The notes: generated by a model from the sequence alone, not told the origin. A stretch of DNA of 64,000 bases from Candidatus Bathyarchaeota archaeon (GCA_963733055.1 CAVTBR010000001.1:1508809-1572808), one strand, 5' to 3'. Shown: positions 43,323 to 59,923, numbered from the stretch's first letter. A program made the numbers and translations.

Positions 43323-43436
43323 GGGCCGGTAGTTCAGCCTGGTATGCCCATATCCCGTAAGGGGCCAAAGAACGTCCGGTTCGCATCCACGCTAAGAAAA
43401 ACCGGAAGGCCGCGGGTTCAAATCCCGCCCGGTCCA
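43323..43436 (+). tRNA. tRNA-Ala(CGC) with two introns (43346-43369 in the D-loop; 43386-43400 at 37/38)
   Basis: G3-U70 acceptor GGGCCGG/CCGGTCC; BHB TGGT/GCCA with ATG and AAG bulges; anticodon arm TCCGG-TT-CGC-A..A-CCGGA. Confidence 0.9.
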
Positions 43437-43483
43437 CTATCAACTGAATATAGGCTGTCGGAAAATTATTCCGGAGGATGAAC

Positions 43484-43521
43484 TCTTAGGCCATAAGACG
43501 AGTTCTTCTTAGGCCCGCAGA
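43484..43521 (+). repeat. Left subterminal tandem boxes
   Basis: TCTTAGGCCATAAGA (43484-43498) and TCTTAGGCCCGCAGA (43507-43521), 23-bp period. Confidence 0.85.
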
Positions 43522-43550
43522 ATCCGTCATGGTTTATGAATATGTGATAT

Positions 43551-43861
43551 GCGGCCTTAATGTGTCGAAAGGCGGCTCGCGCCGTGCGTTCGTTACGCAT
43601 CGCGGGTACCTGAGACTAAAGGAAGACCCAGTATTCATCCGGGCCCCTAGTGGCTTAGTGGATCGCTCTGCTGTCGTCTCCTGAGCAACGTGCGTCCCGT
43701 TTCCGGGCAGGGTTTCGGGCGCGAAGCTTCAGGAGATGGTACGAATGGTAGAGACAAGCACAAGTGAAAATAGAAAACTAGATGATCACCAGGCCGTTGC
43801 GGTTGGGGCAAGGAATCCGTATCCCGTTCTCAGTTGCTTGCCTCAAAGAGTGGTTACTGGG
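43551..43861 (+). ncRNA. Candidate structured ncRNA inside the transposon left end
   Basis: At least six helices with plus-strand G-U pairs, a GAAA tetraloop and two possible pseudoknots; TTTATG box upstream. Confidence 0.55.
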
Positions 43862-43880
43862 CTAATTCCCTCGATTATGG

Positions 43881-43930
43881 GGTCACATGGAAATCATTTT
43901 ATAGTCATATCACATAGTTACCATGTGACC
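43881..43930. promoter_or_regulatory. Transposase promoter flanked by a 10-bp inverted repeat (putative operator)
   Basis: GGTCACATGG (43881-43890) and CCATGTGACC (43921-43930) surround TTTTATA; followed by a leader hairpin and GGAGG. Confidence 0.6.
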
Positions 43931-43985
43931 ATCAAATGGGCGGGCAGGGTTGCACCCCTACCCACCCTGAAAGGAGGTCGAAACC

Positions 43986-45032
43986 ATGGAAGGAAACGAC
44001 TCCTCAAGGAAAAAATGCGGGAAGATTAGCCTCTCCGACCCCTCCATAGGGCTCCTGTTCACCAGCATCGATCTAGAATGGGCTGAGGTTGTCGTAGCGA
44101 CCAAGTATTCACTTCTCAAACGGCGACCCCGAGTCGAAGCGAAACCACAGATTCTTGCGCACCTCTTCAAGGCACTCCGCCAGATCAAATCGTTTAGGAA
44201 GCTGGAGGAAGAACTCGGTGAAAATGATGGACTTTGGGCCCATATGCTCGGCTTCGAGAAGCCGCCTAAGCACCAAAGTTTTTCAGATTTTCGGAGAAGA
44301 GTAGGTTCAGTACTTTTCATCGAAATCCTCCGAGAACTGCGCACACGTCTCGTTGAGCTGAAACCAGATCTAGCGGAAATTGTGGTCTTAGATTCAACCA
44401 ATATTCCAGCATACGCGAAGCCTGGAAGAGGCCGAAGAAAGTCGTCTGACAAAGACGCCAAGTGGGGAATCCGCATCAATCCGAAGACGGGTAAGAAGGA
44501 ATACTTCTTCGGACACAAGCTTCACATGGCTCTCTCTGCCAAATATGGTGCGCCTCTCGAAGTTCGAGTGACGCCTGGCAAATGTGCTGACAGCCCAGAA
44601 TTTCCCAAACTCCTTCAATCTCTCTCCGAGGCAAACGTGCATTTTGGTGTGGCCGTGGCTGACGCGGGTTACGATGCCCGAACTAACTACTACGCGGCGA
44701 TTAGGCACAAAGCGAAACCAATAATCGCATTCAATCGCCGAGGTAAACCCGCAGGCACAACAGGAAGATCGCTCGACCACGAAATGCCAGTTCTGCGTCA
44801 CTCCAAAGAGTGGAAACAATTCTATGCAATGAGAGGAGCCATTGAGCGACAATTCTCCGAACTCAAAGAACAGCTAGGAATGAGGCTCCTGACGCTACGA
44901 GGCCTAGAGCGCGTCACAATCCACCTCTACCTCTCTCTAATCGTTCTGCTTGCAATCAATCTTGTCGCTCACCTAACAGGGAATCCAGAACTCCTGCGTT
45001 CAATCGAACCGTGGAGGTACAGCGATGTCTGA
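43986..45032 (+). CDS. DDE transposase (IS5/IS1182-like, IS4 superfamily)
   Basis: VLDST, DAKWG...FFGHKLH, ADAGYD, Y..R..IERQFSELK. Confidence 0.93.
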   Translation: MEGNDSSRKKCGKISLSDPSIGLLFTSIDLEWAEVVVATKYSLLKRRPRVEAKPQILAHLFKALRQIKSFRKLEEELGENDGLWAHMLGFEKPPKHQSFSDFRRRVGSVLFIEILRELRTRLVELKPDLAEIVVLDSTNIPAYAKPGRGRRKSSDKDAKWGIRINPKTGKKEYFFGHKLHMALSAKYGAPLEVRVTPGKCADSPEFPKLLQSLSEANVHFGVAVADAGYDARTNYYAAIRHKAKPIIAFNRRGKPAGTTGRSLDHEMPVLRHSKEWKQFYAMRGAIERQFSELKEQLGMRLLTLRGLERVTIHLYLSLIVLLAINLVAHLTGNPELLRSIEPWRYSDV

Positions 45033-45525
45033 TCGAGAATGCCGCTGGACATTAGGCGTCCAGGTGAACAGAAAGATCGGAGAGAAAGTCTACCCGAGCC
45101 TCAGAATTTACGTACCCAGCGCCGACAGCGAGCTACTCCTCAAGCGGCTGCAAGCCGAAGGAGGCGAAGCCGCAAAACTATACTTCAACGCCAAGATCAA
45201 CGGCTCAACAATCACGCTACGACAAGTTAAACTCCAAACACAAACGAAGGCCGCCCGTCCCAGCCTGACAGAGCGAGCGGACCAAATAATCACGATCATC
45301 GCTCAACAAGGAGGAACCACAACCTGGCCCGCCGTGCGAGAAAAACTCGGATTACCCCCTGAAAGCATGCCTGGCCCATTCCTCGTCAAACAACTCAGAG
45401 ACAGAGGACTCCTAACAATTAAGAACCCGAAGACATCAACAATGACCTGGAAGCTCATAAACAGGCAAAAACTGAACGGATGGACAAGTATTCAAACGAC
45501 TAAGCATGAAGTGCAAGAAAGGTAA
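45025..45525 (+). CDS. Transposase-coupled putative DNA-binding protein (AbrB-like N-terminus, winged-helix C-terminus)
   Basis: Overlaps the transposase stop; YPSLRIYVP; IITIIAQQGG..W..VREKLG...LVKQLRDRGLL. Confidence 0.55.
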   Translation: MSDRECRWTLGVQVNRKIGEKVYPSLRIYVPSADSELLLKRLQAEGGEAAKLYFNAKINGSTITLRQVKLQTQTKAARPSLTERADQIITIIAQQGGTTTWPAVREKLGLPPESMPGPFLVKQLRDRGLLTIKNPKTSTMTWKLINRQKLNGWTSIQTTKHEVQER

Positions 45526-45558
45526 CTCGCCCACCATCATCTGGGAAGTGAATGAACT

Positions 45559-46479
45559 CTGGCTACGAATATTGAGCAACGGAGCAAACGCGAAACCGAA
45601 ACAGTAACCAGACTTAAGATCGCAAATACGCGAACCTGTGATTGCCCAGACAATCACATAAACTGCATGACCGCAAAGGAATGGATTAAAGCACAGATTG
45701 GCGTCTGGCAGGTTTTTTACGAGACACGGGACACACGTGACAAAGATATCCATCCAGCCGTAATGCCCATTTCACTTGCAAAACGTGCCATCGGGCTATT
45801 CACTCACAAGGGCGAACTCGTGGTCGACCCATTCAATGGGATAGGCACAACTCTTCTAGCGGCCAAGGACTTAGACAGAAATGCTGTCGGTTTCGACATC
45901 AATTCACGCTATTGCAAAGTCTCCGAAGAACGCTTAGCCCAGACTAAGCTGACGGCATCAGCGATGCAAATAGTTGTTTGCGACGATGCCCGCAATATTC
46001 CGCATTATTTCGAAAATGAAAGCATCCAACTGCTTTTCACTTCTCCTCCTTATGCAAACCTGTTGAATCGTCGTCGTCTTAACAAGAGTAGGAGAGGTGA
46101 TTTGCGGAAGAACGATCAGTTTCTACGAGTTGAACAATACAGTCAAGATGAACGCGACTTGGGAACATTAACGATTGAACGGTATGCAGAACAGATTAAG
46201 GAAATCTACGGAGAATTGTTTCCACTTCTTGTGCCAGGCGGGCATAGTGTTATCAACGTTCCTGACATGTGGTGGAGCGACGGAAAATTCGGAAAGAGAA
46301 TACCGATACACATCTATGTCTACCACGCAATGCTGGATACTGGTTATGAACTGCGCAACACGATAATCTGGGACCGAACCAACATAGTTAATCGAGTTGG
46401 CATATTCGGATGGCCATCGAACTACATCACGATGGGTACAACATTCGAATACCTCTTGGACTTCTGGAAGCCGCTCTAA
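45559..46479 (+). CDS. N4-cytosine/N6-adenine DNA methyltransferase (inferred CTG start; first ATG 45667)
   Basis: HPA, DPFNGIGTT, then TSPPY; partner of the convergent MvaI-like REase. Confidence 0.9.
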   Translation: MATNIEQRSKRETETVTRLKIANTRTCDCPDNHINCMTAKEWIKAQIGVWQVFYETRDTRDKDIHPAVMPISLAKRAIGLFTHKGELVVDPFNGIGTTLLAAKDLDRNAVGFDINSRYCKVSEERLAQTKLTASAMQIVVCDDARNIPHYFENESIQLLFTSPPYANLLNRRRLNKSRRGDLRKNDQFLRVEQYSQDERDLGTLTIERYAEQIKEIYGELFPLLVPGGHSVINVPDMWWSDGKFGKRIPIHIYVYHAMLDTGYELRNTIIWDRTNIVNRVGIFGWPSNYITMGTTFEYLLDFWKPL

Positions 46480-46483
46480 AGAG

Positions 46484-47263
46484 TCAGAATATTTGCTGCA
46501 CGATTCCATAGAAATCATTCCACATGTTCCTTCTCATTCGGAACTTTGTTCCGTGATTATGAGAACTACTTGCATCGAAGTCTACCAACACTGTTCCTTT
46601 TTCGATAGCTTCTAAGAAGTTACTAAAGCCAAAATGCCCTAACATAACGCAGCTATCGTACTTGAACTCCTCTTTCTCGTCTGTTGTTCTGCTCGCGGCT
46701 TCGATGTAGAATGAATTAGTCAGCTTCTTCCGAGTAATTCCATCTAGAAGATCGAAGGACCATTGAGGTTCCGGATTAATCGATCCTAATCCCACCCTAC
46801 GCCTCACAGTCTCTAGCCACTGGGCATGTTTAGGGTCAGTTTGCTCATGTTCGAAATCTATTCGGACGAGCTTTTGGTCACGATCAACGACGACCTTGAA
46901 TCCACGGTCGGTGTAATTGACGGCGGATATGGTTTGGCGGAAACTGTTTTCTTTGGGTTTCGTAGCGTGGGGCCAGCCGTACTTTGGCAGAAGGACTCTC
47001 TCAACAATTTTCTCCCTCGGATACGGCTCGAAGTGAAAAAGTGTCGTTAGCGAACCGGATTCGCGACGTTGAGCCTTAAGTTCCCAAGCGCCTGCGTTTG
47101 CGATGGGCAGATTGTTTTCTTTTATGCCTAGTAAGTCTTCCAGCGTGTTGCCCACGGAACCTACGTTAGTTTTTGCGCGATGGCTCGGAATCCAACCCAT
47201 ATCTTTGATCTTGCGTAGTTCTGAGATGAACTCGGCCTTGGAATATTTTCGACTTGCTAACAA
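46484..47263 (-). CDS. MvaI/BcnI-family type II restriction endonuclease
   Basis: G.VGNTLEDLLGIKENN, ELKA.R, LTTLF..EP, HNHGTKFR. Confidence 0.88.
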   Translation of the reverse strand: MLASRKYSKAEFISELRKIKDMGWIPSHRAKTNVGSVGNTLEDLLGIKENNLPIANAGAWELKAQRRESGSLTTLFHFEPYPREKIVERVLLPKYGWPHATKPKENSFRQTISAVNYTDRGFKVVVDRDQKLVRIDFEHEQTDPKHAQWLETVRRRVGLGSINPEPQWSFDLLDGITRKKLTNSFYIEAASRTTDEKEEFKYDSCVMLGHFGFSNFLEAIEKGTVLVDFDASSSHNHGTKFRMRRNMWNDFYGIVQQIF

Positions 47264-47313
47264 GAGCGTGATTTAGGGCGGTTGTATCAAATTTAACAGT
47301 ATGGAATTTCTCC

Positions 47314-47661
47314 TCATTGACCTCTCCACTTTGTTAGTCTGGATTGGAATTCGTTAACTGCCTGTGGGTTTATCGGCGTAAATTGACCTTGTAATCTTCC
47401 TTTGGAGGTTCTGGAAACAATGAAATCTCCCAGTAGTGCATTTCGGAACGAAATCTCTCTGAGTTCCCCGTCTTTCATTTCGTGCAGCAGGGAAACAAGG
47501 TCAATTGTGAAAGCGTCAAAACGCTGGACAAATAATCTCTTCTTGGTTCTGGTGTTGGTGGTGATGTGAATGTCTTTGGAGGTTAAAATATATGGCAGCG
47601 CGTTTACCTCGGACTCGGAAAGCACAATCGATTCGGGTGCGGGAGCCAAATGAATACCCAT
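47314..47661 (-). CDS. Hypothetical protein
   Basis: 115-aa ORF filling the intergenic space; no motif recognised. Confidence 0.45.
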   Translation of the reverse strand: MGIHLAPAPESIVLSESEVNALPYILTSKDIHITTNTRTKKRLFVQRFDAFTIDLVSLLHEMKDGELREISFRNALLGDFIVSRTSKGRLQGQFTPINPQAVNEFQSRLTKWRGQ

Positions 47662-47739
47662 CTCAAAGCAAATAGGTTAGGGTGAATAGATTAACTTCAT
47701 TGGATTTGGGTTCGGTAGACTTAGGAGATTGAACGAAGC

Positions 47740-48090
47740 ATGTCCCTGGTCGATAGTCTGAATTTCTATCCCTATTATGAACATCTCTTGAAAGAGAGAC
47801 GAAAAACCAAGACCGTTCGGTTGGGAGACCAGGTATCGAAATATCACAACGGCGCGATAGTCAAGCTGACATGTGGCTGGAACCCTACCGACGCCGTCGT
47901 GCTAGCTAAAATCAAAATAATGGATGTTTTTTCAGCGCCAATAGCCTCTCTGAAAGATGAGGATTTACTAGGCGAGAGTCCTGACTGCTTGACTGTTGTC
48001 GCGGTACCATATGTCTTGTCGGCAATCTACAGAAAGGTTGTGAACGAGAGCGATGTCGTCACTGTGATTCGGTGGGCGTATGTCGACTGA
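47740..48090 (+). CDS. ASCH-domain protein
   Basis: LNF...Y..LL..RRKTKTVRLG, C-terminal VTVIRW. Confidence 0.8.
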   Translation: MSLVDSLNFYPYYEHLLKERRKTKTVRLGDQVSKYHNGAIVKLTCGWNPTDAVVLAKIKIMDVFSAPIASLKDEDLLGESPDCLTVVAVPYVLSAIYRKVVNESDVVTVIRWAYVD

Positions 48091-49156
48091 TACTCCGCTT
48101 GTACTTATCACATCAACTCGATGGCCATACCTCCGAGATATACTGGACATAATGTTTCTTCCTTCGCATCTCACCTACCGTTTCAGATACTCGCCCTCCT
48201 ATGTTCCACCTCAAATTTTCACAAACCCTGCTAGTCTCACCAAGCGGAAGGGCTACATCGTTCACGCTAATACACGACAAAGACCACATCTGAAAGATGC
48301 ACTTCTGGAATTTCTTCCTATCAGAGAAGTCACAATTAGAGACGCGAAACAATTTGGGCAGTTCTTGTGGATCCATTTCGAGCTGGGCAATTGGGTAATT
48401 TACAAAGCGCCTAGTAGTTCACAACCCAATGAATACGATAAAACGTTACGCGGCGTCACCCCTAAAGGCTCTCGCAATATCGTGACTCTTACACTCTATG
48501 AAGCCCCGTCTCTGAAATTAGAAACACTTCCAGATGATCCATCTGGACGTTCAGAGCAAGTCGCGAGCAACTGGATGCAAATTGTGAAACGGATGAAAGA
48601 GTTCGAAGGGCATAAGAACTATGAACCAACCTACTTGAAACTCTTAGCCCTGAAAAATATAACATGTGAAAATGCTGTTGTCCCTGGCTTAATTTCGGGT
48701 CTAGATAGCGGGTACAAGCTACAATCCGGTAATGATTATCGTTTGGAAGTCTTGGAGTACAATCCGTATCGCGTTCCGGACGAACCGTTTCCTTTGAAAC
48801 TGAAGTTTGACGAAAATAGAATCGTCCCGCTGGTGAATGAAGCCACAATTCTGGGTGGTTACGACTTTCTCATCACATCCTTTCGACCGACAGCTACACT
48901 GAGTCCGTATCGGACAATCCTACATGTCCAAGTTGAATCTGCAAACAAAATGAAGGTAGCAGTGAGTTTACACGCAAAGATATTGAGGAGCAGTAGTCGA
49001 ATGATCTCTGCGGTATGTGTAGCGGTTGGTATTGGCCTATCAACCGTTGCACCAAGCATAGCGGAAGGCCACCTTACCATCGACTATGCACTCGTGGGCA
49101 CGCTCGTCGCGGTTGCTGGGTTCATTTCCCTCTTATGGAGCGGTGAACGACCCTAA
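48080..49156 (+). CDS. Hypothetical protein with two C-terminal TM helices, coupled to the ASCH gene
   Basis: Overlaps the ASCH stop; hydrophobic C-terminus. Confidence 0.65.
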   Translation: MSTDTPLVLITSTRWPYLRDILDIMFLPSHLTYRFRYSPSYVPPQIFTNPASLTKRKGYIVHANTRQRPHLKDALLEFLPIREVTIRDAKQFGQFLWIHFELGNWVIYKAPSSSQPNEYDKTLRGVTPKGSRNIVTLTLYEAPSLKLETLPDDPSGRSEQVASNWMQIVKRMKEFEGHKNYEPTYLKLLALKNITCENAVVPGLISGLDSGYKLQSGNDYRLEVLEYNPYRVPDEPFPLKLKFDENRIVPLVNEATILGGYDFLITSFRPTATLSPYRTILHVQVESANKMKVAVSLHAKILRSSSRMISAVCVAVGIGLSTVAPSIAEGHLTIDYALVGTLVAVAGFISLLWSGERP

Positions 49157-49177
49157 ACGTTCGAACAGTCGCTCGAT

Positions 49178-50311
49178 CTAAATGGACCTCATAGCCCTAC
49201 TAATGAAACTCCGAGAACTGAACATCTGCCAATCTGACGTTCTCTGGGACCTCGGAATACACCATCTCGTTTTCCAGTATTCGAACAATCTCTGGAAGGG
49301 ATGAGAAATCCATTCAGGTCTACTATTTTCATGTATAACCTGCTCTAGGTTCTTGACATGCGGGAACAAGTAGAATCCTCTCCGAATATTGTTCTCGCAA
49401 TACCCACGCAGGTTGAGAAGCTGAAACGCTTGATGAATTAGAACCCGCTTACGTGAAGGTCCCGATCCGTAACCCCTGGTTGTATCAATCTCTTTTGACT
49501 CTAAGAACGCTACTATATCCTTGAAATGTTTATCCGAGACATGAAACGTCCCAGACCCCGCTGTGTAACCTAAGAATGAGCAGACTTTTTGTTCTTGGAG
49601 TCTGAGTCTTTCGTAGACGCTACTCTTGCCGTATGCACCTGTCGTGGAGACGAAAAGAAGACGTGGCGGTATGCTTCGGCTGCGGATGATGGTTTTGCTT
49701 CCATAATATTTTCGTCTGTAGCTGTTGCGTAACTCTTCGGTCACGAGAGAAAGTGCCATCATTTTGGCTCCTAGAAGTCTGTTGTATGGTGGTAGCGCCC
49801 CGACTCTCTGGGCGTATAGAGATTGGTTGATCCAATAGTCAAGATCTTCTTTCTCTATCCCGAGATATTTGTCGCGCACTCCCATTCTCAAAGGGGGACT
49901 TTGCAGCAGGAGTAGACCAAAGGGGGCGTCGTGATATGTATCCCACGCCAAGAATCGCATCTGGCGTCCTACGGGTTGCTCAAAGGGGAGACTCCACCAC
50001 ATCAAGTTCCACCAGAAAAAGATCCTGGAAGTAATAGCACTGGAACTTGGTTTTTCGATTTCTAGAAGTTGCAGTCTGATTTTCTCTGGTTGAACATCTC
50101 GCCCATCAATTGCGTATTCTTTTACAGCTGGAAGTGACTCTTCAAGCAATTTCCTGTGTTGTTTCAGCCTCTCAAGTCTACGTGTAGCATGGACACTCTT
50201 TAGGTAGGTCTTGGAGACATGTGCAGGTCTAAGATGAGGATTGTAGAGGAATCCCTGGGAGACGACGCTCCTGACGAGCCTCCGTCGGAGTAGCCGCGCT
50301 TCCCGGTTCAA
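49178..50311 (-). CDS. DUF4338 / Druantia DruA-like protein
   Basis: WSLP....GR.MRF..WD, RD.YLG, GALPPYN.LLG.K, TT.AYG.SSVY.RL, G.T.G.G.FH. Confidence 0.8.
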   Translation of the reverse strand: MNREARLLRRRLVRSVVSQGFLYNPHLRPAHVSKTYLKSVHATRRLERLKQHRKLLEESLPAVKEYAIDGRDVQPEKIRLQLLEIEKPSSSAITSRIFFWWNLMWWSLPFEQPVGRQMRFLAWDTYHDAPFGLLLLQSPPLRMGVRDKYLGIEKEDLDYWINQSLYAQRVGALPPYNRLLGAKMMALSLVTEELRNSYRRKYYGSKTIIRSRSIPPRLLFVSTTGAYGKSSVYERLRLQEQKVCSFLGYTAGSGTFHVSDKHFKDIVAFLESKEIDTTRGYGSGPSRKRVLIHQAFQLLNLRGYCENNIRRGFYLFPHVKNLEQVIHENSRPEWISHPFQRLFEYWKTRWCIPRSQRTSDWQMFSSRSFISRAMRSI

Positions 50312-50331
50312 TTCAATTCAACAGAAAAATG

Positions 50332-52074
50332 TCATTTCTCGTCGAAAGAATTTGCTTTCATGAAATCAGTCGGATAATCTAACGCTGTAAAGAACAATGG
50401 CGCACCTGAGAACGAAAGGGGCGAGATGGGGCCCCATGTCATGAAGCTGTATTCTCGGTTGCCTAGTGCCGCTTGTGGATCTTTGAAGAGTTGATAGAGT
50501 TTAATTGCTTCTTCGTTTCCCCCGATTAAGTCCGTCAACGCCCTGAGTTCTGCTCCCCATCCCAATCCAAAACCGAATATGTAGATTCGAAGTTGGCGAA
50601 TGATTTCCACTTCTAGAGCCGAGAGGGACTGGCTTATGAAGAGCCATCCAAGGCCATACTTCCTCGTTGTTCGGCATGCATCGACAAGCGTTCTTTTGAC
50701 TTCTCCAAGTTCCAGATCCTCTCCGGTATCACGAGGAGCGAGGCGGTGCGCTTCGTCGATGACTACTAAAGTATTCAGTAGCCTGCCACCTTTGTATGTC
50801 TGCTCTGCTAGCGTTGTCAGTTCCAGCAAGAGATGATTTATCACGATTAGTCTAATTGAGTCGTTCCATAGTATAGACTCGGGCACTTGGGTTTCAGATA
50901 AGTCGATGATGGCGATATTGCTCTTGGTACCAATTCCTTTACCAACAAAATCCTTTGACTTAACGGCTTTCGTTTTTCCATCGTACGCAAATAATCGAGC
51001 AACTCGTGACCAAACAAGAGTGTAAGCTTCATCCGCAGGCCAATCGCGATGTGCGTTTCTAACTCGGTCTTGATACTCCTGGCCAGAGTAAATGTTGGCT
51101 AGTACCTGAGGCGTCACTAGCTGGTCCCACACGTAATCAAAGACTGCTTGTCGATAGAGGTCCCAAGGTTTAGCCGGGAGAGTTACTCCCGTCAGCAGCT
51201 GCTGTTTGCGCTTTAGAATCGACCGTATTTGCGATTCCGCTCTGTCTTTGTTTTCGTCCGCATAAATGGCCAACTTTGTGTAGAATTCTGTTGTGCGAAG
51301 TATTCTCAGGAACAATGTAAAATTCGAGTCATCATTGACAACCAGGTCATGAAGGTCGTGAAAACTCACCTCTCTTTGGCCACCTCGGTTCAGTATCGCC
51401 ACAACTTTAGAGTCTTCCTTCAGCTTGGAAAACTCCCCTTGCGGATCGAGTACAATTAGAGACATTTCAGGATGCAGAGAATAGCCGACCATCATCATTT
51501 TCGAAAGAACTGACTTTCCGGAACCAGTTTTGCCGAAAATGCCAATGTGATATGCTTCATCGGCACCCCCTTTGCCGAAGTGTTTCAACCACAAGGGAAG
51601 TAGTAGTTCTGTACCATATGCATAGCCCAGACAGAATAGTTGAGAGAGATAGTCCTTCAACAGAACATTCATGAGTTCAGCAGTGATCAGGCGAACTGAT
51701 GTTCCAGTTGCCGGAACAGTTCCTAGGACACTACCTTCGGTGCTGGTGCTCAGCGCAAGAACCGTGCTGACCGTCATACTCGCGGTATGCGTGTCTTGGC
51801 GTTCTGTTACCGGATCAACCCGCCCCTTCTGGCGAATCAACCCACGCATCGTTGGATCTTCACTCCAGACATTTCTCAACTTAATTTCCGTGATTTGACC
51901 AAGCGTGTACGTGTCTTTGCCATCTTGGTGGAATTTGAAGACGGAGAGTGTACCAACAAGTCGTTTGTCAACGGCTGTGCCGAGAATGTCTATTGTGAGC
52001 TGACTCGTAGAAGACGGCGACCCTATTACGCCGATCCTTTCCGACCCATCGAAGGCTTTCGAGATCTCAGACAT
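50332..52074 (-). CDS. HerA/DUF87-family ATPase
   Basis: N-terminal HAS barrel, HIGIFGKTGSGKS, LDPQGEF, IDEAHRLAP, RKYGLG...SQ. Confidence 0.9.
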   Translation of the reverse strand: MSEISKAFDGSERIGVIGSPSSTSQLTIDILGTAVDKRLVGTLSVFKFHQDGKDTYTLGQITEIKLRNVWSEDPTMRGLIRQKGRVDPVTERQDTHTASMTVSTVLALSTSTEGSVLGTVPATGTSVRLITAELMNVLLKDYLSQLFCLGYAYGTELLLPLWLKHFGKGGADEAYHIGIFGKTGSGKSVLSKMMMVGYSLHPEMSLIVLDPQGEFSKLKEDSKVVAILNRGGQREVSFHDLHDLVVNDDSNFTLFLRILRTTEFYTKLAIYADENKDRAESQIRSILKRKQQLLTGVTLPAKPWDLYRQAVFDYVWDQLVTPQVLANIYSGQEYQDRVRNAHRDWPADEAYTLVWSRVARLFAYDGKTKAVKSKDFVGKGIGTKSNIAIIDLSETQVPESILWNDSIRLIVINHLLLELTTLAEQTYKGGRLLNTLVVIDEAHRLAPRDTGEDLELGEVKRTLVDACRTTRKYGLGWLFISQSLSALEVEIIRQLRIYIFGFGLGWGAELRALTDLIGGNEEAIKLYQLFKDPQAALGNREYSFMTWGPISPLSFSGAPLFFTALDYPTDFMKANSFDEK

Positions 52075-53214
52075 CTAATAGTCGCTCCGATATGCATGCA
52101 TTGCCATGTAGACATCACCAATATTGCCATCCCAGTTACTTGCGATCTCCTGTGTCGCCGTTTGGGTCAACGCTGGAAGAGCAACGGCCAGGTGCTTTAC
52201 CATGCGGTCGGCTAAGTAGAGAGGATATGGTTCCATCATCGAAGGCGACCCGCATTGGAGTTTCAAAGCCTCAAGGATAATGGCTATTCTCTGTTTATTC
52301 TTTGCAATAGACTCGGGGACTTCGATCCTGAACGCGGGAAGATGCATAAACGGTCTGTAATAGAAGATATGGAGTCGAGAAAGGGACCTACTTATTTTGT
52401 CAGCAATCTGGCCCTCGATTGGCAAATGATAGGGACTCTCTGGTTCCGTCATCTTGAGTGGAGGTGTCAATTCGCCGGGTTCAAGAATTAGTGTCAACAG
52501 TGCACGGTCCTCATATCCCTTCACGTTCAAACGAGAGCAAATCTCGTTCTTGCTTGTGTATTTTGGGACTCCGGCAAATGCCCTATCGGTACGTGTACTT
52601 GCCGCAATTTCGTCGTAATATTTCAGAGTCTCATCAAGTCTCGCAGAGAGAACGCTTTTGATATTCGCAGGGGCTTCATTGATTTTTGAGAGTCCTTGAT
52701 TTAGGTATATCAGAGGTGTTACCAATGAATTGTCTATGAAAATGACATCATGTGGGGCCTTGCCTGCCAGTTCGATTTCCATTGCCACCATGATGGCTCG
52801 TGAAACCACTCCGGTTGCTTCACTATGAGGCGCGGTTTCTGTAAGAACACGATGATGCGGTCTAGGCCAGTGTCGTATTTCTGAGGGTGGAGTCAAACCT
52901 TCGACTGCCAGTCCCGCAACTGCTGCGATGTCTGTGGTAAGCAATCTCTCTATGGTGTAGCTACCATCGACGCCACACGTCGTTGGATAGGTAGGCGTGG
53001 ACGCGAAGTCAGATTCCCTGGCCAGCAGGTTTTGATTCTTGAGCGAGTCTCTGAGTTCCTTCTTGCGTTTTACCACTCCTCTCAACGCAATGAGTAATTC
53101 CTGTCCCAACTTGATCGAATTGCCGAGCATTTCCTCCACAAGAGCTTCCGGTAGCTCAGCGAATGGCGATTGTAAGCTTTCCAAGTCCTTTCCTACACCA
53201 TTGCAAATCATCAA
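52075..53214 (-). CDS. NurA-domain nuclease
   Basis: CGVDGS, IDNSL, PK, EPYPLYLAD.MVK; abuts the HerA gene. Confidence 0.8.
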   Translation of the reverse strand: MMICNGVGKDLESLQSPFAELPEALVEEMLGNSIKLGQELLIALRGVVKRKKELRDSLKNQNLLARESDFASTPTYPTTCGVDGSYTIERLLTTDIAAVAGLAVEGLTPPSEIRHWPRPHHRVLTETAPHSEATGVVSRAIMVAMEIELAGKAPHDVIFIDNSLVTPLIYLNQGLSKINEAPANIKSVLSARLDETLKYYDEIAASTRTDRAFAGVPKYTSKNEICSRLNVKGYEDRALLTLILEPGELTPPLKMTEPESPYHLPIEGQIADKISRSLSRLHIFYYRPFMHLPAFRIEVPESIAKNKQRIAIILEALKLQCGSPSMMEPYPLYLADRMVKHLAVALPALTQTATQEIASNWDGNIGDVYMAMHAYRSDY

Positions 53215-53415
53215 GTTGGAAATATCACTTTCGATTGAGTCAGCGTCGAGATTCGGTGTCTACAAGTAGGTCGCTCATGACGAATTATGCAATATAGCGC
53301 TTATCGCTCAAAGTGCCTCAATACGCTCCACTTTTCACGCTTACTTACTGATTTCTCTGTGCCAGGTTCGCGACTACATTTGACCAAAACAATCCTATTT
53401 TTCTTTTGAACACAA

Positions 53416-53670
53416 ATGATTGTGGAACTCGCAGAACGAGTGCAGACAACAACTAACCACAATTACGCATGGTTCGGTGAACTTTGGCCTTGGTTCCTAC
53501 TCGTTTCATTTTTTGGATTATTGATTGTCGACGGTCCATTAACCCCCACCATCATTGGCGACTTCTTTAGAAGTAGTATTCTAGTTTGGCAATTGCTTCT
53601 AGTTATTTCGACATTCTCAAGTGCCTTAGCTATCCCATCTGTGCTTCTTGATGAAACGCTGGCAGCCTAA
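53416..53670 (+). CDS. Small membrane protein
   Basis: Two hydrophobic segments. Confidence 0.35.
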   Translation: MIVELAERVQTTTNHNYAWFGELWPWFLLVSFFGLLIVDGPLTPTIIGDFFRSSILVWQLLLVISTFSSALAIPSVLLDETLAA

Positions 53671-54260
53671 CCAGACTTCACATCAGTACAAACTGGTACT
53701 GTAGTCAAGGAGGAAACATACAGTTCAGGATAAACGGGAAAATGTTCAATCCCAACTTGGCCGCCTTCAATAGATACATAGACAGTCAAAAGGGCACCAG
53801 TTACGAGTGCGTGCGGATAATGGAATAGGCTTCCGTTCACTGGCAGGTAGATATAGAATGTTAGATTCGCTCCGTGAAGTACCCACCATGAGAATGGGAT
53901 ATGTAGCGGGGCTGTTGGATCTAGCGGGCTGTATCCCATTCCATTGGAAAAAGTAGTGCTATTCATTGCAACTGAGACATCCACAAAAGTTACAGGCCAG
54001 TTAAGACGATTCGTTACATTGATGTAGACTCGATAAAGGCTTGTTAGCGTTGTCATGTTTCGAACTAGACATGCCTTGCCAAGTCTATCGTAGAAATCGG
54101 AGGGTTGAGGTGGTCTGGATGTTGGCGTCGGATGGTAGTAAAAATAGGTTATCAGCGAACCGAACATTATGACTGCAATAAGGACGATGGCTGAAACATA
54201 TCGTCCCTTGTGAGACTTACGAGGTTCAATTTCTATGTCAGTAGGTTTATGGTGTGGCAT
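53667..54260 (-). CDS. Membrane-anchored hypothetical protein
   Basis: Single N-terminal TM and beta-rich ectodomain; 3 bp downstream of the ImmA-like gene. Confidence 0.55.
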   Translation of the reverse strand: MPHHKPTDIEIEPRKSHKGRYVSAIVLIAVIMFGSLITYFYYHPTPTSRPPQPSDFYDRLGKACLVRNMTTLTSLYRVYINVTNRLNWPVTFVDVSVAMNSTTFSNGMGYSPLDPTAPLHIPFSWWVLHGANLTFYIYLPVNGSLFHYPHALVTGALLTVYVSIEGGQVGIEHFPVYPELYVSSLTTVPVCTDVKSG

Positions 54261-54263
54261 ACA

Positions 54264-55169
54264 TCATGCATCCTTTACATTATGGTTTCCCAGTCGACTG
54301 CAAGTATGGGAAGGTATCGTAATTCCGTCTATAGTCTCAATGCGATTGACGTCTAAGAATTCCGAAAGGCTTGTTGTTTTTTGACCGGAATTAATTCTCT
54401 TCAGGAGCAGTACGGCTGGCCGACAAACGAGTTGATTGTCATATCTGCGGAACTCAAGAGCGATTGGTCCAGCCGATACGTAGCCTTCTATTGTACCGGC
54501 TGAATCATGAAATCGGTTCCTGTATTTCGAAATCGATTGGAGAAGGTTTTCACGATAAGGCTCGCTGATTCTGTGTGAATGTTCATAATAGCGTGGCCAG
54601 AGCTTTACGCTATCATTGGACCCAATCTCGACGAAGATTATGCCATAAATGTCGTGTAAGCGTCGGTAGAAAGTCGTTCGAGAGACTCTGAACACACTGG
54701 ATCCACTGAAGACGACCCTTGAGTCTCCCAGTTGTGTGTATTGTCCAACAAAACGATAGATCCACGAAGTAGGGAGCAACAAGGATGCTGCAAACCGGTT
54801 GCACCATGATTCGATGTTACTTGTTTTGCTGCTTCGACAAGCACATTTCTCCATGGATCTGTTTACGACCCAATGACCCAGCTCATGAGCTATTGTAAAC
54901 CTCCTTCTAGTTGATTCCGCATCGGCTTTTACAAGGATTTCAGCACAGCTTCGTCCGAACTCGATAAGATAACCGTCGCCGTCAATCTTATCAAGAATTA
55001 TTGACATTCCAAGTGCTTCGGCAATCTCGGTCAACATCAGGTGAGGAAACACTTGCTTTGAGAAGACGATTAGGCTGTTCGCTATTGTGTCCGGGTTTAG
55101 AGTTCTTAACCGATCCCAGGACGGAATCGCATCGTGAACAAAACTAGCGGCGGTTTCACTCACGTTCAA
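54264..55169 (-). CDS. ImmA/IrrE-family metallopeptidase
   Basis: RRRFTIAHELGH...E.WCN.FAA.LLLP. Confidence 0.88.
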   Translation of the reverse strand: MNVSETAASFVHDAIPSWDRLRTLNPDTIANSLIVFSKQVFPHLMLTEIAEALGMSIILDKIDGDGYLIEFGRSCAEILVKADAESTRRRFTIAHELGHWVVNRSMEKCACRSSKTSNIESWCNRFAASLLLPTSWIYRFVGQYTQLGDSRVVFSGSSVFRVSRTTFYRRLHDIYGIIFVEIGSNDSVKLWPRYYEHSHRISEPYRENLLQSISKYRNRFHDSAGTIEGYVSAGPIALEFRRYDNQLVCRPAVLLLKRINSGQKTTSLSEFLDVNRIETIDGITIPSHTCSRLGNHNVKDA

Positions 55170-56052
55170 ATTCCTCTGCCGCTTTTCGCATTATTCTCGC
55201 CCAGATATGCTTCCTGTCTTTAGGAGTGACCTCACGGCCTCTCATTTGGGCGGGGGTCGACTTGGAGTGATACAGTATCTCCGCAACTTTCGCGGCAATA
55301 TCCTCCTCATAGTCAGCCACTAAGATGTTTTGAAGGTTCGTGTGGAGTGATTTCGCTACTTGTTTTAGTTGTAGAATACTGAAGTTAGTCAAGTAGTCTG
55401 GACATTCTTCCAGTAGCTTAACCTCATCTTCAGGGACGCCAAGGTTAGCGGCAAGATCCGCGGCTGATAGGCCAGTCTGAAGTCTGAGTCGGTGAATGTT
55501 TCGACCGATTGAGAGATTTGAGTTTTCCCGCATATTCCTCTTTCTTTCCAACATTGCTGGCAATAGAATATCTATCGCTTGCGACAATTTGTCAGACAAA
55601 TCAGCGCCGCTTTCATACCGAACAGAGTACATCCTCCCGGGTATGCCGCGCACCATTCTACTGATTGATTTTTCGCCCAGCGCTACGCTTAGAATCGGCA
55701 GTAATGCGGTTCCGGCAATCTCAAGTTCTTGACCTACTCCGAAGCTTGGCTCGTTAGCCAAGAATATGAAAACGTCTGATGATAGGACATTCCTCCTGTC
55801 CATTCGATAGACCTGTTCAGGGGTTAGAGACGGATTTAGAAGCGGGTCCGAGATCTTTCGTGGTTCATAGAATTCCACTCCCTTAGCTTTACAAGTCATC
55901 TCGATTACGTTTAGCGTTTCGTCGATGCTGACCCTTTGAGACTCTGATAACCCAGTCAAGGCACAAGCAATGTAGGCGCGAACTGGAACTGGTGTATGCT
56001 CCTCGATAGGCTGTTCCGGTTGCGCAGGAAGCTGAACATTTAAGGTTGCCAT
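55156..56052 (-). CDS. Nucleoside 2-deoxyribosyltransferase-like domain fused to an XRE HTH
   Basis: AYIA..LT, Y.P, D...V..SD, PSFGVGQELE.A, ISRMV.G; then IGRNI.RLR...GLS..DLA..LGV. Confidence 0.75.
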   Translation of the reverse strand: MATLNVQLPAQPEQPIEEHTPVPVRAYIACALTGLSESQRVSIDETLNVIEMTCKAKGVEFYEPRKISDPLLNPSLTPEQVYRMDRRNVLSSDVFIFLANEPSFGVGQELEIAGTALLPILSVALGEKSISRMVRGIPGRMYSVRYESGADLSDKLSQAIDILLPAMLERKRNMRENSNLSIGRNIHRLRLQTGLSAADLAANLGVPEDEVKLLEECPDYLTNFSILQLKQVAKSLHTNLQNILVADYEEDIAAKVAEILYHSKSTPAQMRGREVTPKDRKHIWARIMRKAAEEFERE

Positions 56053-56053
56053 T

Positions 56054-56632
56054 CTAGTGTCCTTCCTCTTCGAAGGGGAACTCTATGGTAAGCGGCGCTA
56101 CGATGGCATTGAGATTCCTGACCGCAATCTGCACGTGGGTTAGGTTTGAGAAGGAACCTTCAGGGAAAATAGAGTCGCCTTCCAGAAACGGCCCTCGGAC
56201 CGTGTCTATTTCGTAGAGATTCTCGCATACGTGGTTTATAACGGCTCGGTCAAGCGCATGATTTCCGCGGTGGTTTGCCGGGGGCGAAGCGCCTCTTATC
56301 GTATAGGTGTTCAGAAGTTGCTTATGGGCGGCGCGGACAACTGTGACCCACTTGGTATCGAATAGGTCTAAACATCGACCCAATCGAACTTCGGTCACTA
56401 TAACCGCAGCGGAACTCCCATTTTTCTTCTGTGCCCAGGCGATCGCTCGATCAGGGCTCTCCTCCCAGAAGTAGATCCCGTCTCCCAGCCAATCCCACTC
56501 GTTGTGGCTAGATACTAGCTCCTGACATGCGATTGCAAGAGTAGCTCTCTCGATAGAAGTACCGTGATAAACGGTTACAATTCTCATGTCTGGTGCCAGA
56601 GATATCCTGGGGCAAACGACAGCTGACATCAT
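56054..56632 (-). CDS. ADP-ribosyltransferase-fold protein (DUF3990-like)
   Basis: VYHGT, WLGDGIYFWE, A..WA, H.QIAVRN. Confidence 0.7.
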   Translation of the reverse strand: MMSAVVCPRISLAPDMRIVTVYHGTSIERATLAIACQELVSSHNEWDWLGDGIYFWEESPDRAIAWAQKKNGSSAAVIVTEVRLGRCLDLFDTKWVTVVRAAHKQLLNTYTIRGASPPANHRGNHALDRAVINHVCENLYEIDTVRGPFLEGDSIFPEGSFSNLTHVQIAVRNLNAIVAPLTIEFPFEEEGH

Positions 56633-56925
56633 GCCATCACCTGGATTCTTTCCATCACCCAGTAGCCCTTTGTGCTACACACTTTGCAGATCCAGCACAT
56701 TCGTTCGCCCGTCTTTGTTGAATAGTACACACTGGTCTCACCAGAACATTTTGGGCATGGAAATTCGTTTTCGATACTTGCCGAGATCATTGCAGGTCAA
56801 CCTCGTCTTACTCGGCGCCTCTTATAATCTCTGACTTTCTCATTAATTCAGGAAATAAACAGTTAACAGATTCCGTTAGTGTTATTAACTAATTACCAAT
56901 TTGCAGTAAATTCGTAGAACAGAAG

Positions 56926-57255
56926 TTGTCAGACGAATCGGAGATGTTATGGAAACGGGTAAGACTGCTCACAAATTCATCGGTTCGCGAAATTGTCTGT
57001 GCATTGATACAGACTCTAGACGGTATCCCGACCGATTTTAGACCCTTAGCAAAAAAGCTCCTTGAACAGAAGAAGATTCCTTACTCAACAGCTAACCAGT
57101 TGATAAGACAGATGGCCACGCTAAAGATGGTAGATCTAACTGGGGGCCCAAGAACGGGTCTAGAGGTTCGCCTGAATCAGTTCGACATTCCTGCTCTCAA
57201 TCCTAAGACAGTTTACAGACTAGAGAGAGGGAGGAGCGTTCTTCCCTCAAGCTAG
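56926..57255 (+). CDS. Winged-helix-like protein
   Basis: IPYSTANQLIRQMATLKMV recognition helix and wing; abuts the TS-like gene. Confidence 0.5.
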   Translation: MSDESEMLWKRVRLLTNSSVREIVCALIQTLDGIPTDFRPLAKKLLEQKKIPYSTANQLIRQMATLKMVDLTGGPRTGLEVRLNQFDIPALNPKTVYRLERGRSVLPSS

Positions 57256-57969
57256 GTGGTTCAGATGAAACAGGCCGATGGTAAGCCCGTCGTGATTGAA
57301 GGAGACGGATTCGAAAACACTTGGCTGAAGTTGCTCGTGTATGTATTGCAAGGTCAGACGGTAAATGATGTACGAAGCAAGGAAACGACAGAGGTATTGA
57401 ACTGCATCACTTACATAGCGAACCCCCAATCGAAGAAGTACCCACAACGATTCGTCGAGCAGGCAAATAGAACCGAATACAAAGTTGCCTTACTCGAAGC
57501 GCTTGCCGAGCCCAGCCTAGATTGGAAGCCATGCCTCAGGCTGAAGGAATATCCCGCCCCTAAGTCTGGGACGATAAATCAACTTGAGCATCTTGTTAAG
57601 ATGATTAAGAAGTGGCCGACTACTAGAAGGGCCGTCGCTTCGACATACTATCCTGCCGAAGATTGCTACGGCTCCCTTGAGGTGGTAAGCTATGATCTAC
57701 CCGCAATTCAGGTAATTGACATGAAGCCCAGAGATGGACGACTGAACCTGACTTGCTACTTCCGCTCGTCAGAAGTCTTCTTTTGGTGGCCCATCAACGC
57801 GTACCAATTAACCAAACTTATGGAGGAAACCGCGCTAGAATGTCACCTTTCAAATGGCAGTCTGACAATGGTACTGTCAAGTGCGCACATAGTTGAGAAG
57901 AACTTGAAAGAAGCCCAGTCAGCCGTTAATCAGCTAACCAAACTAGCGACCAAGTCTACTTCTAAATAG
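57256..57969 (+). CDS. Thymidylate-synthase-like protein lacking the catalytic Cys
   Basis: INQL...P.TRRA, FRS, P.N, SAHI retained; LPAIQ where PC is expected. Confidence 0.8.
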   Translation: MVQMKQADGKPVVIEGDGFENTWLKLLVYVLQGQTVNDVRSKETTEVLNCITYIANPQSKKYPQRFVEQANRTEYKVALLEALAEPSLDWKPCLRLKEYPAPKSGTINQLEHLVKMIKKWPTTRRAVASTYYPAEDCYGSLEVVSYDLPAIQVIDMKPRDGRLNLTCYFRSSEVFFWWPINAYQLTKLMEETALECHLSNGSLTMVLSSAHIVEKNLKEAQSAVNQLTKLATKSTSK

Positions 57970-58291
57970 ACTTCTCGATAATCTCCGCGATTGTTTCCTT
58001 AATGTCCAAACCGTCAAGCACGCATTTTTCAACTAATTTGTTGAAAGTCGCAAGCTTGACTGAAATCGTCATATTGATTTGGCTAGGAGGCTCGTGAAAT
58101 CCCGCAGCGATTTCCATTTCGGTTAGGCCCATAGTTGCTCTGCTCCTTCGGTCGAAATGAACCACTTTAGTTCCCTGTATTTAACACGCGTGGTAGGACA
58201 TGTACCTGGAAAAGTGGAAGTGAATCTTAACATATTGACAACTTGGCGCTTCGAGAAGAAGCACTGGTGTTTCATCCGCGAAGGATGCAAA

Positions 58292-58801
58292 TCAATTATT
58301 GGAAGCGATTGAGACGGTCTGGTCGAGTTTAGAGTTCAGTTCACTGAGCAGGTCATTCAATCTTGTTATCAGCATTCCGACTTCGTTGATCAACCAGACT
58401 ATCTCCGCGGGTTTTGATTCTGTACGATTCTGAACATGTGGAATTGAGAATTTTCTCTGGCAGTCATTGCATCGGAACCGTCTTGCAATACCCCTCGCAT
58501 TGTACCGGAATCCGCATCTCGCGATATCAATTGAGCCGCAATATCTGCATTTGAGATGCGCTTCGTCAAAGTCTTCTTGCTTGTCCTGTGACGCGTAGCG
58601 ATGGAATTGGGTTGCATACAAATGGGAACATGCAGGTCCGTCGGACTGGCAATCACACCCCCATTTTCCATCCTTGAGTTCGATTAGATGCCAGCCGTTA
58701 CTTCCTTGAGATTTTACGACGTAATGAGTTGGAGCAAGTCTTCTCACCATTCCGTTCTTGAAGATGGCGAATCCCTCCTCTCGGAGGGTATCCTCGTTCA
58801 A
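58292..58801 (-). CDS. SWIM zinc finger plus zinc ribbon protein with C-terminal coiled coil
   Basis: CDC....CSH; CRYCGS...G......RFRCNDC. Confidence 0.75.
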   Translation of the reverse strand: MNEDTLREEGFAIFKNGMVRRLAPTHYVVKSQGSNGWHLIELKDGKWGCDCQSDGPACSHLYATQFHRYASQDKQEDFDEAHLKCRYCGSIDIARCGFRYNARGIARRFRCNDCQRKFSIPHVQNRTESKPAEIVWLINEVGMLITRLNDLLSELNSKLDQTVSIASNN

Positions 58802-59529
58802 CGTATTGCCTCTTTCAGAGTTACCGTAGTCGTCTTACTGGGGCACTGGTCGAGGTACGGACAGTAGTGGCACATGGGTCCAGGTTCAGCTGCGGGCAGA
58901 ACGGAATCTTTCGTTGATTGGTGTAATGCGGTGGCTCTTTGAATCATCCACTCCTTCCGGTACCCGAGTGGGACTTCTTTAGGGATGATCTCTTTGTCAT
59001 CCACGTAAATTAGCACAAGTCGGGTAACTGCGATTCCATATTCGCCGAGTAATGTGGCGTAACATTGAACCTGAGCGGTATGGTTTTCGCGTGGGATGTG
59101 CCCCTTCTCTGCTTGCCAGTTTGCAAATCGCGTCGTCTTTAGATCGTAAAGAGTCGAAGTCTCAATGTCAAGAGCATCAACATATCCAACAATCGTTATT
59201 GTCTCATCACCGAGCGGGAATGTCATTTTGACTCGCAGTTCGCTCCAGCCGAGAGATCTGACCATGTAGTGGAGTAAGGTTCCCCGAAGTTTAGCCCACG
59301 CAGACCCTACGGGCTCGTCCACGGGCGAAGTTCTTTCGAAGTATGCTTTCGCTAAGCAATTTGTGAGGGTTGAAACATGGTAGGTGTTGGGTTCTGGTTG
59401 GAACCTTTGCCATGTCATTCTGCTCCAGAACGAACTTGGTAGAAGCGAGTTACATTCCGAACAATCCTGAACTCTCTGGTTATGGTTGCAGATCAGAGAT
59501 TTCCGAACGGCAGGCATATATTCCGTCAT
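58798..59529 (-). CDS. Solo Cas4-like PD-(D/E)xK nuclease
   Basis: C..., RGT.LH, G.VD...YDLKT, Q...Y, C..C.Y...C Fe-S-type Cys pattern. Confidence 0.8.
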   Translation of the reverse strand: MTEYMPAVRKSLICNHNQRVQDCSECNSLLPSSFWSRMTWQRFQPEPNTYHVSTLTNCLAKAYFERTSPVDEPVGSAWAKLRGTLLHYMVRSLGWSELRVKMTFPLGDETITIVGYVDALDIETSTLYDLKTTRFANWQAEKGHIPRENHTAQVQCYATLLGEYGIAVTRLVLIYVDDKEIIPKEVPLGYRKEWMIQRATALHQSTKDSVLPAAEPGPMCHYCPYLDQCPSKTTTVTLKEAIR

Positions 59530-59558
59530 GTGAGAATCACTTTACAGAGTCGAATCGT

Positions 59559-59751
59559 GTTGACCCTAAAGGCGGAGGTTCGGGTCGTACAGAATCCGGA
59601 TGCCAAGACTCAGTACATTGCAATACCGTCCGCGGTCGTTCAGGACTCATTGTATCCATTTCACAAGAACGAGATCTTAGACCTGGAAATTGATCCAAAG
59701 ACACAGACCGCAACGCTTCGGCCGCATGATTCCACGGGTAAGAAACATTAG
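59559..59751 (+). CDS. AbrB/MazE-like small DNA-binding protein
   Basis: YIAIPSAVVQDSLYPFHKNE...LEID; divergent from the Cas4-like gene; start approximate. Confidence 0.6.
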
Positions 59752-59819
59752 CCATTTCTGAATCATGTGATACTCACGTGGTACACGGTTAAGGTTTGCG
59801 CCTCAACCGGAGCTTAATC

Positions 59820-59857
59820 TCTTATGGCCTAAGACAAACTCCTCTTATGGCAACAGC
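59820..59857 (-). repeat. Right subterminal tandem boxes
   Basis: TCTTATGGCCTAAGA (59820-59834, exact reverse complement of the left box) and TCTTATGGCAACAGC (59843-59857), 23-bp period. Confidence 0.85.
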
Positions 59858-59906
59858 CAAAACCTAGCTACCCAAAGGTTGGGAATTTTCCGACAACCTA
59901 ACTGAA

Positions 59907-59923
59907 TAGGCTGTTGAAAAATT
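59907..59923 (+). repeat. Second transposon-end-like sequence
   Basis: TAGGCTGTTGAAAAATT matches the left TIR at 15/17 and overlaps the right TSD by 2 bp. Confidence 0.7.

Follow-up and report, generated by a model that had tools for sequence, protein, structure and literature searches.

A candidate family of archaeal cargo transposons with a DDE transposase, a Cas4-like nuclease and a preference for sites behind tRNA genes

Introduction

In 2019 cargo-carrying DNA transposons were said to be undetected in archaea (PMC6563490, in the available portion of its text), and the archaeal ones reported since are, as far as the available text of a preprint goes, members of the Tn7 family only (10.1101/2025.07.27.667033). 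The subject of this paper is a candidate of another kind: an element of about 16 kb in the genome of a Candidatus Bathyarchaeota archaeon (GCA_963733055.1), found in a stretch of 64,000 nucleotides (CAVTBR010000001.1:1508809-1572808) that is called the window here and from whose first base all positions are counted. The element lies just behind a tRNA-Ala gene, is bounded by inverted ends and a short duplication, and carries a DDE transposase, a Cas4-like nuclease and a set of defence genes.

How does it compare with the systems already described? With the Tn7 family, archaeal members included, it shares large, defence-rich cargo and more than one binding site, here presumed, at each end; in both, too, insertion falls at a defined spacing beyond the 3' end of a conserved gene, in many cases one for a tRNA, and leaves that gene unbroken, and both show tandem stacking (available text of 10.1101/2025.07.27.667033). 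By analogy, the Cas4-like nuclease and the transposase can be likened to TnsA and TnsB, in that each pair sets a nuclease of the restriction-endonuclease fold beside a DDE enzyme. However, the set that defines Tn7, namely TnsB (of the Mu/rve type), the AAA+ protein TnsC and TniQ/TnsD, is absent from the Pfam matches of the 20 window open reading frames (ORFs) scanned, and the transposase is of the DDE_Tnp_1 type. The Tn7 duplication is 5 bp, whereas here it is 8 bp; in addition, either orientation occurs at tRNA genes, and many members lie away from them, so that placement at a constant spacing from the 3' end of a gene, a Tn7-like trait, is found as a preference and not as a rule.

The transposase itself belongs with those of the insertion sequences (IS) IS1182, IS5 and IS4: the DUF772 and DDE_Tnp_1 domains and short inverted ends are common to all, as is the Y-x2-R-x3-E-x6-K spacing, a signature of this superfamily. 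The present elements differ from them in measuring 10-16 kb rather than 1-2 kb, in four further conserved genes, in the tRNA preference and in the 8-bp duplication, and the definition of a simple IS (1-2.5 kb, with transposition genes only) does not fit 16.45 kb of DNA with about 15 cargo ORFs. A single transposase copy that moves extra DNA is likewise found in TnSha1 (IS1272 with a passenger gene; available text of PMC4923244). As for casposons, they are archaeal too, with inverted ends, a duplication, insertion often at the 3' ends of tRNA genes or other conserved genes, tandem arrays and sometimes a Cas4-like protein (available text of PMC6563490), but neither Cas1 nor a family B polymerase is among the Pfam matches of the 20 ORFs, Cas1 has no NCBIfam match among the scanned ORFs either, and a DDE enzyme takes the place of the integrase. 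The element is neither Tn7-like nor a casposon.

A preliminary description, made from the window sequence, had suggested an undescribed class of archaeal, site-preferring cargo transposons with no TnsB, TnsC, TnsD or Cas1. The family-level evidence below supports that suggestion. Its novelty is measured by full-text literature searches, which returned no description of the family (supplementary tables, for example those of PMC6563490, could list relatives); by this measure, and judged from sequence, the elements would form a new family of archaeal unit transposons.

Results

A bounded element behind a tRNA-Ala gene

The boundaries proposed in the preliminary description are sound (Table 1). 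Two 17-bp terminal inverted repeats, complementary at 16 of 17 positions, are flanked by exact copies of the 8-bp duplication ACTGAATA. Inside each end stands a pair of boxes of the CTTAGGCC type, the second copy 23 bp from the first; the 15-nt box at 43484-43498 is 100% complementary to that at 59820-59834, and both boxes are kept in six left and three right ends of relatives. The comparison with Tn7 ends that had been drawn from these tandem boxes holds for the presence of several boxes per end, and just loosely, there being two at each. With up to three mismatches the end motif has 3 sites in the window, where 0.32 would be expected and none of 100 shuffled sequences attains 3, and with up to two mismatches these 3 places are the only ones in the whole 2.88-Mb genome. 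Within the element no internal end-like site is found at up to three mismatches, and so no right end just after the transposase, which would have spoken against the preliminary description. The third site, a solitary copy that overlaps the right duplication by 2 nt, is probably what remains of a related element that had inserted there before.

Table 1. Features of the element and its surroundings, in window coordinates
Feature	Position	Strand	Basis or remark
tRNA-Ala(CGC), two introns (D-loop, anticodon loop)	43324-43436	+	parsed by hand; G3:U70
Target-site duplication ACTGAATA, left copy, 8 bp	43443-43450		
Unit transposon, 16,450 bp	43451-59900		bounded by 17-bp inverted ends and 8-bp duplication
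Left terminal inverted repeat, 17 bp	43451-43467	+	inverted-repeat and motif search
Left subterminal boxes, two, CTTAGGCC-type, 23 bp apart	43483-43519	+	presumed protein-binding sites
Leader: palindrome around TTTATA, then AAGGAGGT ribosome-binding site	43868-43985	+	inverted-repeat search, 6-locus alignment
DDE transposase, DUF772 + DDE_Tnp_1	43986-45032	+	Pfam; IS4/IS5/IS1182 superfamily
Partner ORF, 166 aa	45025-45525	+	8-nt overlap with the transposase stop codon
Variable cargo, about 15 ORFs	45667-57969		Pfam, NCBIfam, PADLOC scans
SWIM zinc finger (CxC..CxH) + IS1/IS1595-type zinc ribbon (CxxC..CxxC), 169 aa	58292-58801	-	
Cas4-like PD-(D/E)XK nuclease, four Fe-S cysteines, N-terminal CxH..CxxC	58798-59529	-	
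Small ORF, listed length 89 aa, conserved part starting near residue 20	59482-59751	+	
Right subterminal boxes, two	59819-59861	-	
Right terminal inverted repeat, 17 bp	59884-59900	-	16/17 complementary to left
Target-site duplication ACTGAATA, right copy, 8 bp	59901-59908		exact match to left
Third, solitary end-like sequence, 15/17	59907-59923	+	left-end orientation
Older non-syntenic island DNA (OB-fold ORF, TFB paralogue), outside transposon	59909-64000		runs to contig end

The left end begins 14 nt past the discriminator base of the tRNA gene, which is intact; the distance is the one given earlier, and the assignment to alanine likewise stands. Unmodified ARAGORN and Rfam scans make no tRNA call at 43324-43436. 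After trial removal of a D-loop intron, ARAGORN calls a tRNA there in 87 of 220 trials, placing the second intron elsewhere and naming 85 of the 87 calls Phe(aaa). The gene is read as tRNA-Ala because it has G3:U70 and because paralogues share its acceptor and T-arm, with GGC, TGC or CGC loops. Its orthologues in G019 and G013 are 87% and 81% identical (our own numbers are used for genomes, G, contigs, C, and loci, L).

The conserved core: two gene modules at the two ends

The core of the family consists of the transposase and its partner on the left and of the SWIM/zinc-ribbon protein, the Cas4-like nuclease and a small ORF on the right, and the cargo between them varies. On the left, the leader that precedes the transposase is conserved in its palindrome (arms 43881-43903 and 43908-43930) and ribosome-binding site and is presumed to be a promoter with an operator. 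A 97-aa ORF in the leader was considered as a gene and rejected, the frame being closed in L058 and different in L060 in the 6-locus alignment.

The transposase scores 91 bits for PF01609 (cut-off 23) and 30.5 for DUF772 (cut-off 23.1), and it has the acidic triad and the Y-x2-R-x3-E-x6-K block, D136, D226/D230, Y280, R283, E287 and K294 being invariant or nearly so in a 20-sequence alignment. It falls below every curated NCBIfam IS cut-off (116.1 of 270 bits for IS1182, 73.7 of 140 for IS5_4, 65.4 of 115 for IS4_1) and is single-copy in the genome. The earlier statement that one intact DDE transposase is coupled to a partner gene is borne out by this and by the 8-nt overlap of the two ORFs. 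The partner has 47 homologues in a protein search and stands beside the transposase, at 64-77% identity (tblastn), in L055, L056, L058/L046, L059, L060 and L061; the source names of its homologues, and of those of the SWIM protein, are Bathyarchaeia. Does it bind DNA, as had been proposed? In the structure model, residues 81-145 have a pLDDT of about 85 and the N-terminal beta-rich domain is of low confidence. The C-terminal domain is winged-helix-like with fair confidence, a reading that follows the secondary structure of the model and the top fold matches, which are weak and fall on winged helices of the MarR type; the fold search returned 0 matches at E <= 0.001. On this reading the partner may bind DNA, and the support from the fold search is weak. 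The predicted complex of transposase and partner scores 0.00, which counts neither for nor against binding.

The right module was absent from the preliminary description, where its three genes were counted as cargo. The SWIM/zinc-ribbon protein has 210 homologues, and its Cys and His residues are invariant in a 27-sequence alignment. The Cas4-like nuclease exceeds the Pfam cut-offs for PDDEXK_1 (38.7 against 22) and Cas_Cas4 (26.1 against 22.7) and stays below the curated cut-off of TIGR00372 (41 against 65); C58, C220, C223, C229, D118, K131, Q153 and Y157 are invariant in seven sequences. It is 84%, 70% and 63% identical to its counterparts in L058, L059 and G034, and in the first two it is more conserved than the transposase (64% and 62%). 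The small ORF has no Pfam or NCBIfam match and by eye looked like an AbrB/SpoVT protein; its tblastn identity is 75% in L058, 72% in L059, 50% in L098 and 42% in L108. A second Cas4-like gene, 76% identical to that of the transposon, stands by itself at C1:230922-231587 (L138), neither an end motif nor any further gene of the modules being found within 25 kb of it.

Relatives share ends and core, and differ in cargo

A protein search with the transposase returned 44 homologues, of which 32 are full-length and 56-76% identical. Scans of contigs with the transposase located 11 loci in metagenomes and one in a genome, and six distinct close loci, the window included, have enough upstream DNA for comparison (the others being L055, L056=L057, L058=L046, L059 and L060). 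The left end stands 494-613 bp ahead of the transposase start codon in every one of the six and is followed by the same two boxes; its 17-bp repeat is identical in L055, L056/L057, L059 and L060 and has one mismatch in L058/L046. The L058 element, the sole one of the five relatives with a right end in reach, measures 10.6 kb and has an exact 8-bp duplication, GATCAGTA. In L059 the right-module genes lie at 10.2-11.6 kb, giving an element of about 11.6 kb; in L056 and L060 no right end is present within 11.6 kb, and L055, on a contig of 2.6 kb, is too short for sizing. No close homologue of measurable size is therefore a short IS, the values being 10.6 kb, about 11.6 kb and, in two loci, no right end within 11.6 kb, and the earlier expectation that the homologues would prove to be other than ordinary short IS is borne out. 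Ends, boxes and partner gene are common to the close homologues.

When 21 window ORFs were compared with 22 loci by tblastn, the transposase and partner matched in the six distinct close loci and the three right-module genes in L058, L059 and G034; the genes of the middle gave weak matches only, the methyltransferase in three loci and the ThyA-like ORF in one. The cargo had been predicted to vary, and it does. That of L058 includes an N6/N4 methylase, PRTase-CE and two ParB_N proteins, that of L059 a HATPase protein, a C5 methylase and Vsr, and that of L060 a PAPS reductase and ParB_N-DUF488. No transposase relative was found in a viral contig collection. The record of one locus, L065/L046 (G010:C135), is labelled with a bacterial genus; an ORF on the contig reads by eye as an archaeal TATA-box-binding protein, G010 is placed in the same genus as the archaeon of the window, and the label is probably wrong.

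In the element itself, the cargo amounts to about 15 ORFs between partner and right module rather than the roughly 17 genes first counted. A type II methyltransferase and an endonuclease of the MvaI/BcnI type are followed by an ASCH protein; DruA is accompanied by a HerA-like ATPase and a nuclease that resembles NurA, and a CapP-like M78 peptidase with a CapH-like helix-turn-helix protein. A weak PARP-like ORF, a ThyA-like ORF and several ORFs without a family complete the list. The description of this cargo as defence genes holds, and the differing cargo of the relatives is defence-like as well; across the family it is made up mainly of genes for defence and for DNA modification. The HerA-like gene encodes the sole ATPase among the Pfam matches of the 20 ORFs and is not common to the relatives. 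The DruA-family gene (PADLOC 221 bits) adjoins the HerA-like and NurA-like genes at 49178-53214, with no other Druantia gene, and the three may be an undescribed combination of defence genes.

In other genomes of the order the same ends also bound much shorter elements, 0.94, 1.0, 1.24, 1.65 and 4.6 kb long. Their genes are HicB-like, PemK-like and helicase, Fic or without assignment, and in none of these elements does tblastn match the transposase or its partner; the 4.6-kb element retains the zinc protein and the small ORF of the right module. From this we infer that the short elements are mobilised in trans. Flanking repeats of 6-8 bases are found in L099 and L100. The 1.65-kb element (L096, G138:C4:594687-596340) holds one ORF of 521 aa, unlike the transposase and without a Pfam match, for which a TnpB-like identity was considered and dropped.

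Ends near tRNA genes across the order

Is the place behind a tRNA gene peculiar to this one insertion? Of the 105 genomes of the order that were scanned, 8 contain the pattern 'CCGGTCCA, 8-30 nt, end core' and none its reversed control. The 13-mer end core was discarded as a means of counting ends, being too short: it has 110 sites in 105 genomes, and the reversed control scores in most. What was read instead are 60 distinct end-like sites with at most two mismatches and at least 45 nt of flank; one site (G276) is known solely through the tRNA-linked pattern. Directly behind a tRNA-type T-arm and acceptor end stand 14 of the 60, in shares of 4/15, 5/21 and 5/24 for no, one and two mismatches, and the true share is probably higher, because many of the two-mismatch sites are chance matches. 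The spacing from discriminator to end is narrow, 11-15 nt in 13 of the 14 and 25 nt in one; the 25-nt spacer, in G060, compares with 13 nt in G138 and was probably lengthened by the expansion of a GC-rich repeat. The acceptor is of the Ala type in nine of the 14, and the other five have a similar T-arm with other acceptors. Seven of the neighbouring tRNA-Ala genes are complete (CGC 3, GGC 3, TGC 1), every one of the three tRNA-Ala isoacceptors being represented, and two neighbouring tRNAs are 3' fragments without the 5' half (L114, G060:C17; L170, G138:C3). Ends 11-15 nt past tRNA 3' ends are far commoner than chance.

Genomic surroundings and stacking

The window, which is archaeal by its 16S rRNA, 23S rRNA and RNase P genes (Rfam), takes up the final 64 kb of contig C1 in a three-contig genome. 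The left flank of the element is conserved in 23 of the 23 genomes of the genus; the right flank, 59909-61100, is represented in 9 of 22 relatives by pieces of just 22-57 nt. In G019 and G013, the two closest relatives, with syntenic DNA 78-88% identical, the match to the window breaks off at the tRNA and is taken up again at C2:517782 of the present genome, and their native sequence after the orthologous tRNA holds no end-like motif. The tail of the window and the last 17 kb of C2 show scattered matches to other species of the genus, at 74-96% identity, whereas the syntenic DNA of these species is less similar; together they form, behind the transposon, a mosaic island about 21 kb long (59909-64000 and C2:517783-535070; L141). 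In G015 a gap of 2 bp separates the sequences homologous to the two contig ends, and C1 and C2 probably join at the island. What follows the tRNA is then probably a non-syntenic island of about 38 kb, of which the element is the tRNA-proximal and presumably the youngest part.

Tandem arrangement is seen directly in L058/L014, where the right duplication runs straight into the left end of an intact related element that has the same orientation and a transposase 36% identical. The probable relic end after the right duplication in the window, and the island downstream, would be explained by such stacking at one tRNA site.

Public sequencing runs contribute little, the best of them holding 0.10 of the sampled words. 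The contigs of four runs at 43250-44250 contain tRNA pieces and related left ends and leave the junction unbridged, and they are uninformative on excision and habitat.

Two observations concern other parts of the window. A group I intron is found in the 23S rRNA gene at 18060-18312 (Rfam 56 bits, gathering threshold 50), and 60509-61068 is repeated with 89% identity at C1:812928-813511, the repeat containing a 141-aa ORF without a Pfam family.

Discussion

We consider it probable, at roughly 0.8, that the 16,450 bp between the two copies of the duplication form an intact and autonomous element, one of a family of archaeal DNA transposons, with defence cargo that can be swapped and with insertion close to tRNA genes. 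Several observations weigh against this interpretation. The end-like sites that are not at a tRNA number 46 of 60 and include four of the six autonomous relatives (L055, L056, L058, L059), so that strictness cannot be claimed for the preference; the elements lie in either orientation to the tRNA, the right-module end of G034 facing it; and some of the ends beside tRNA genes in related genomes could have been inherited and not have arisen independently. The anticipated insertion of homologues beside tRNA genes is borne out as a preference, with no orientation fixed. The end pairs of L096, L097 and L098 lack matching flanking repeats. The clean empty site with a single ACTGAATA that had been predicted was not found in G019 or G013, a result that formally goes against the preliminary description; the reason is that a non-syntenic island adjoins the element on its right side. 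In these genomes the tRNA is followed by DNA that here lies on another contig, and neither insertion nor excision is seen directly. Finally, the element is single-copy and present in no public run, which leaves no evidence of current activity.

If the tRNA is not the target, what is? The elements might follow resident related ends or islands, and be found beside tRNA genes since islands are already there. The third end-like copy directly after the right duplication would fit this, as would the abutting element in L058/L014 and the left flank of L056, whose boxes resemble those inside the second element of L058/L014. Yet in all 14 tRNA-adjacent cases it is the end itself that stands by the tRNA, with 11-25 nt between, and the first arrival had no resident end to follow; the native DNA after the orthologous tRNA in G019 and G013 is free of such motifs, and the narrow spacing fits a distance measured from the tRNA. 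As a full account, attraction to resident ends is improbable, and it is not exclusive of tRNA reading: the two are compatible.

The remaining alternatives concern the nature of the element. An integrated replicon, plasmid-like or virus-like, otherwise episomal and using the DDE transposase as its integrase, would be in keeping with the ParB_N genes in the cargo of L058 and L060, and with the Cas4-like nuclease, such proteins being common in archaeal viruses and casposons (in part from the available text of PMC6563490). This is very unlikely, given that replication, capsid and packaging families are missing from the Pfam matches of the 20 window ORFs, that no such genes are conserved across members and that the viral contig collection holds no relative. 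It is scarcely credible that the transposase, though within the IS4/IS5/IS1182 superfamily, belongs to an ordinary IS5/IS1182-type IS that has lost its outer end and captures neighbouring genes by chance, tRNA adjacency being a coincidence. Capture of a passenger gene through a substitute end is known in the IS1182 family from TnSha1, but TnSha1 has hairpin targets and no duplication (available text of PMC4923244), whereas an 8-bp duplication is present here. In L058 and L059 the right module is kept together with the left while no other cargo is common; the element contains no internal right end, no close homologue that can be measured is short, and tRNA adjacency recurs in 14 places.

For the autonomous transposon family that we favour, a mechanism can be sketched. 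The transposase would bind the ends and boxes and join the ends to a staggered cut of 8 bp. One or more DNA-binding accessory proteins could read the T-arm/acceptor DNA that the tRNA genes share and so fix the distance of insertion, and the Cas4-like nuclease might cut or trim the second strand or process the gaps. The short elements would be moved in trans, and repeated use of one tRNA site would stack elements in tandem. A bolder proposal, which we regard as tentative and rather doubtful, takes the analogy with Tn7 further: an independent lineage of Tn7-like 'homing' in which the DDE enzyme and the Cas4-like nuclease would each cut one strand, a zinc-finger or winged-helix protein would read the T-arm/acceptor DNA of tRNA genes and set the insertion 11-15 nt downstream, defence cassettes would be carried from place to place and short elements would be mobilised in trans.

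If the interpretation is true, these archaea would have arrived at a second, independent solution to the targeting of safe sites, with a different transposase, and the elements would be a vehicle that explains defence islands beside archaeal tRNA genes. They would also be a natural test case for the question whether a DDE transposase can make use of a nuclease of the Cas4 type. With a compact set of proteins and a defined DNA target, the family would be a candidate for programmable or site-specific insertion in archaea.

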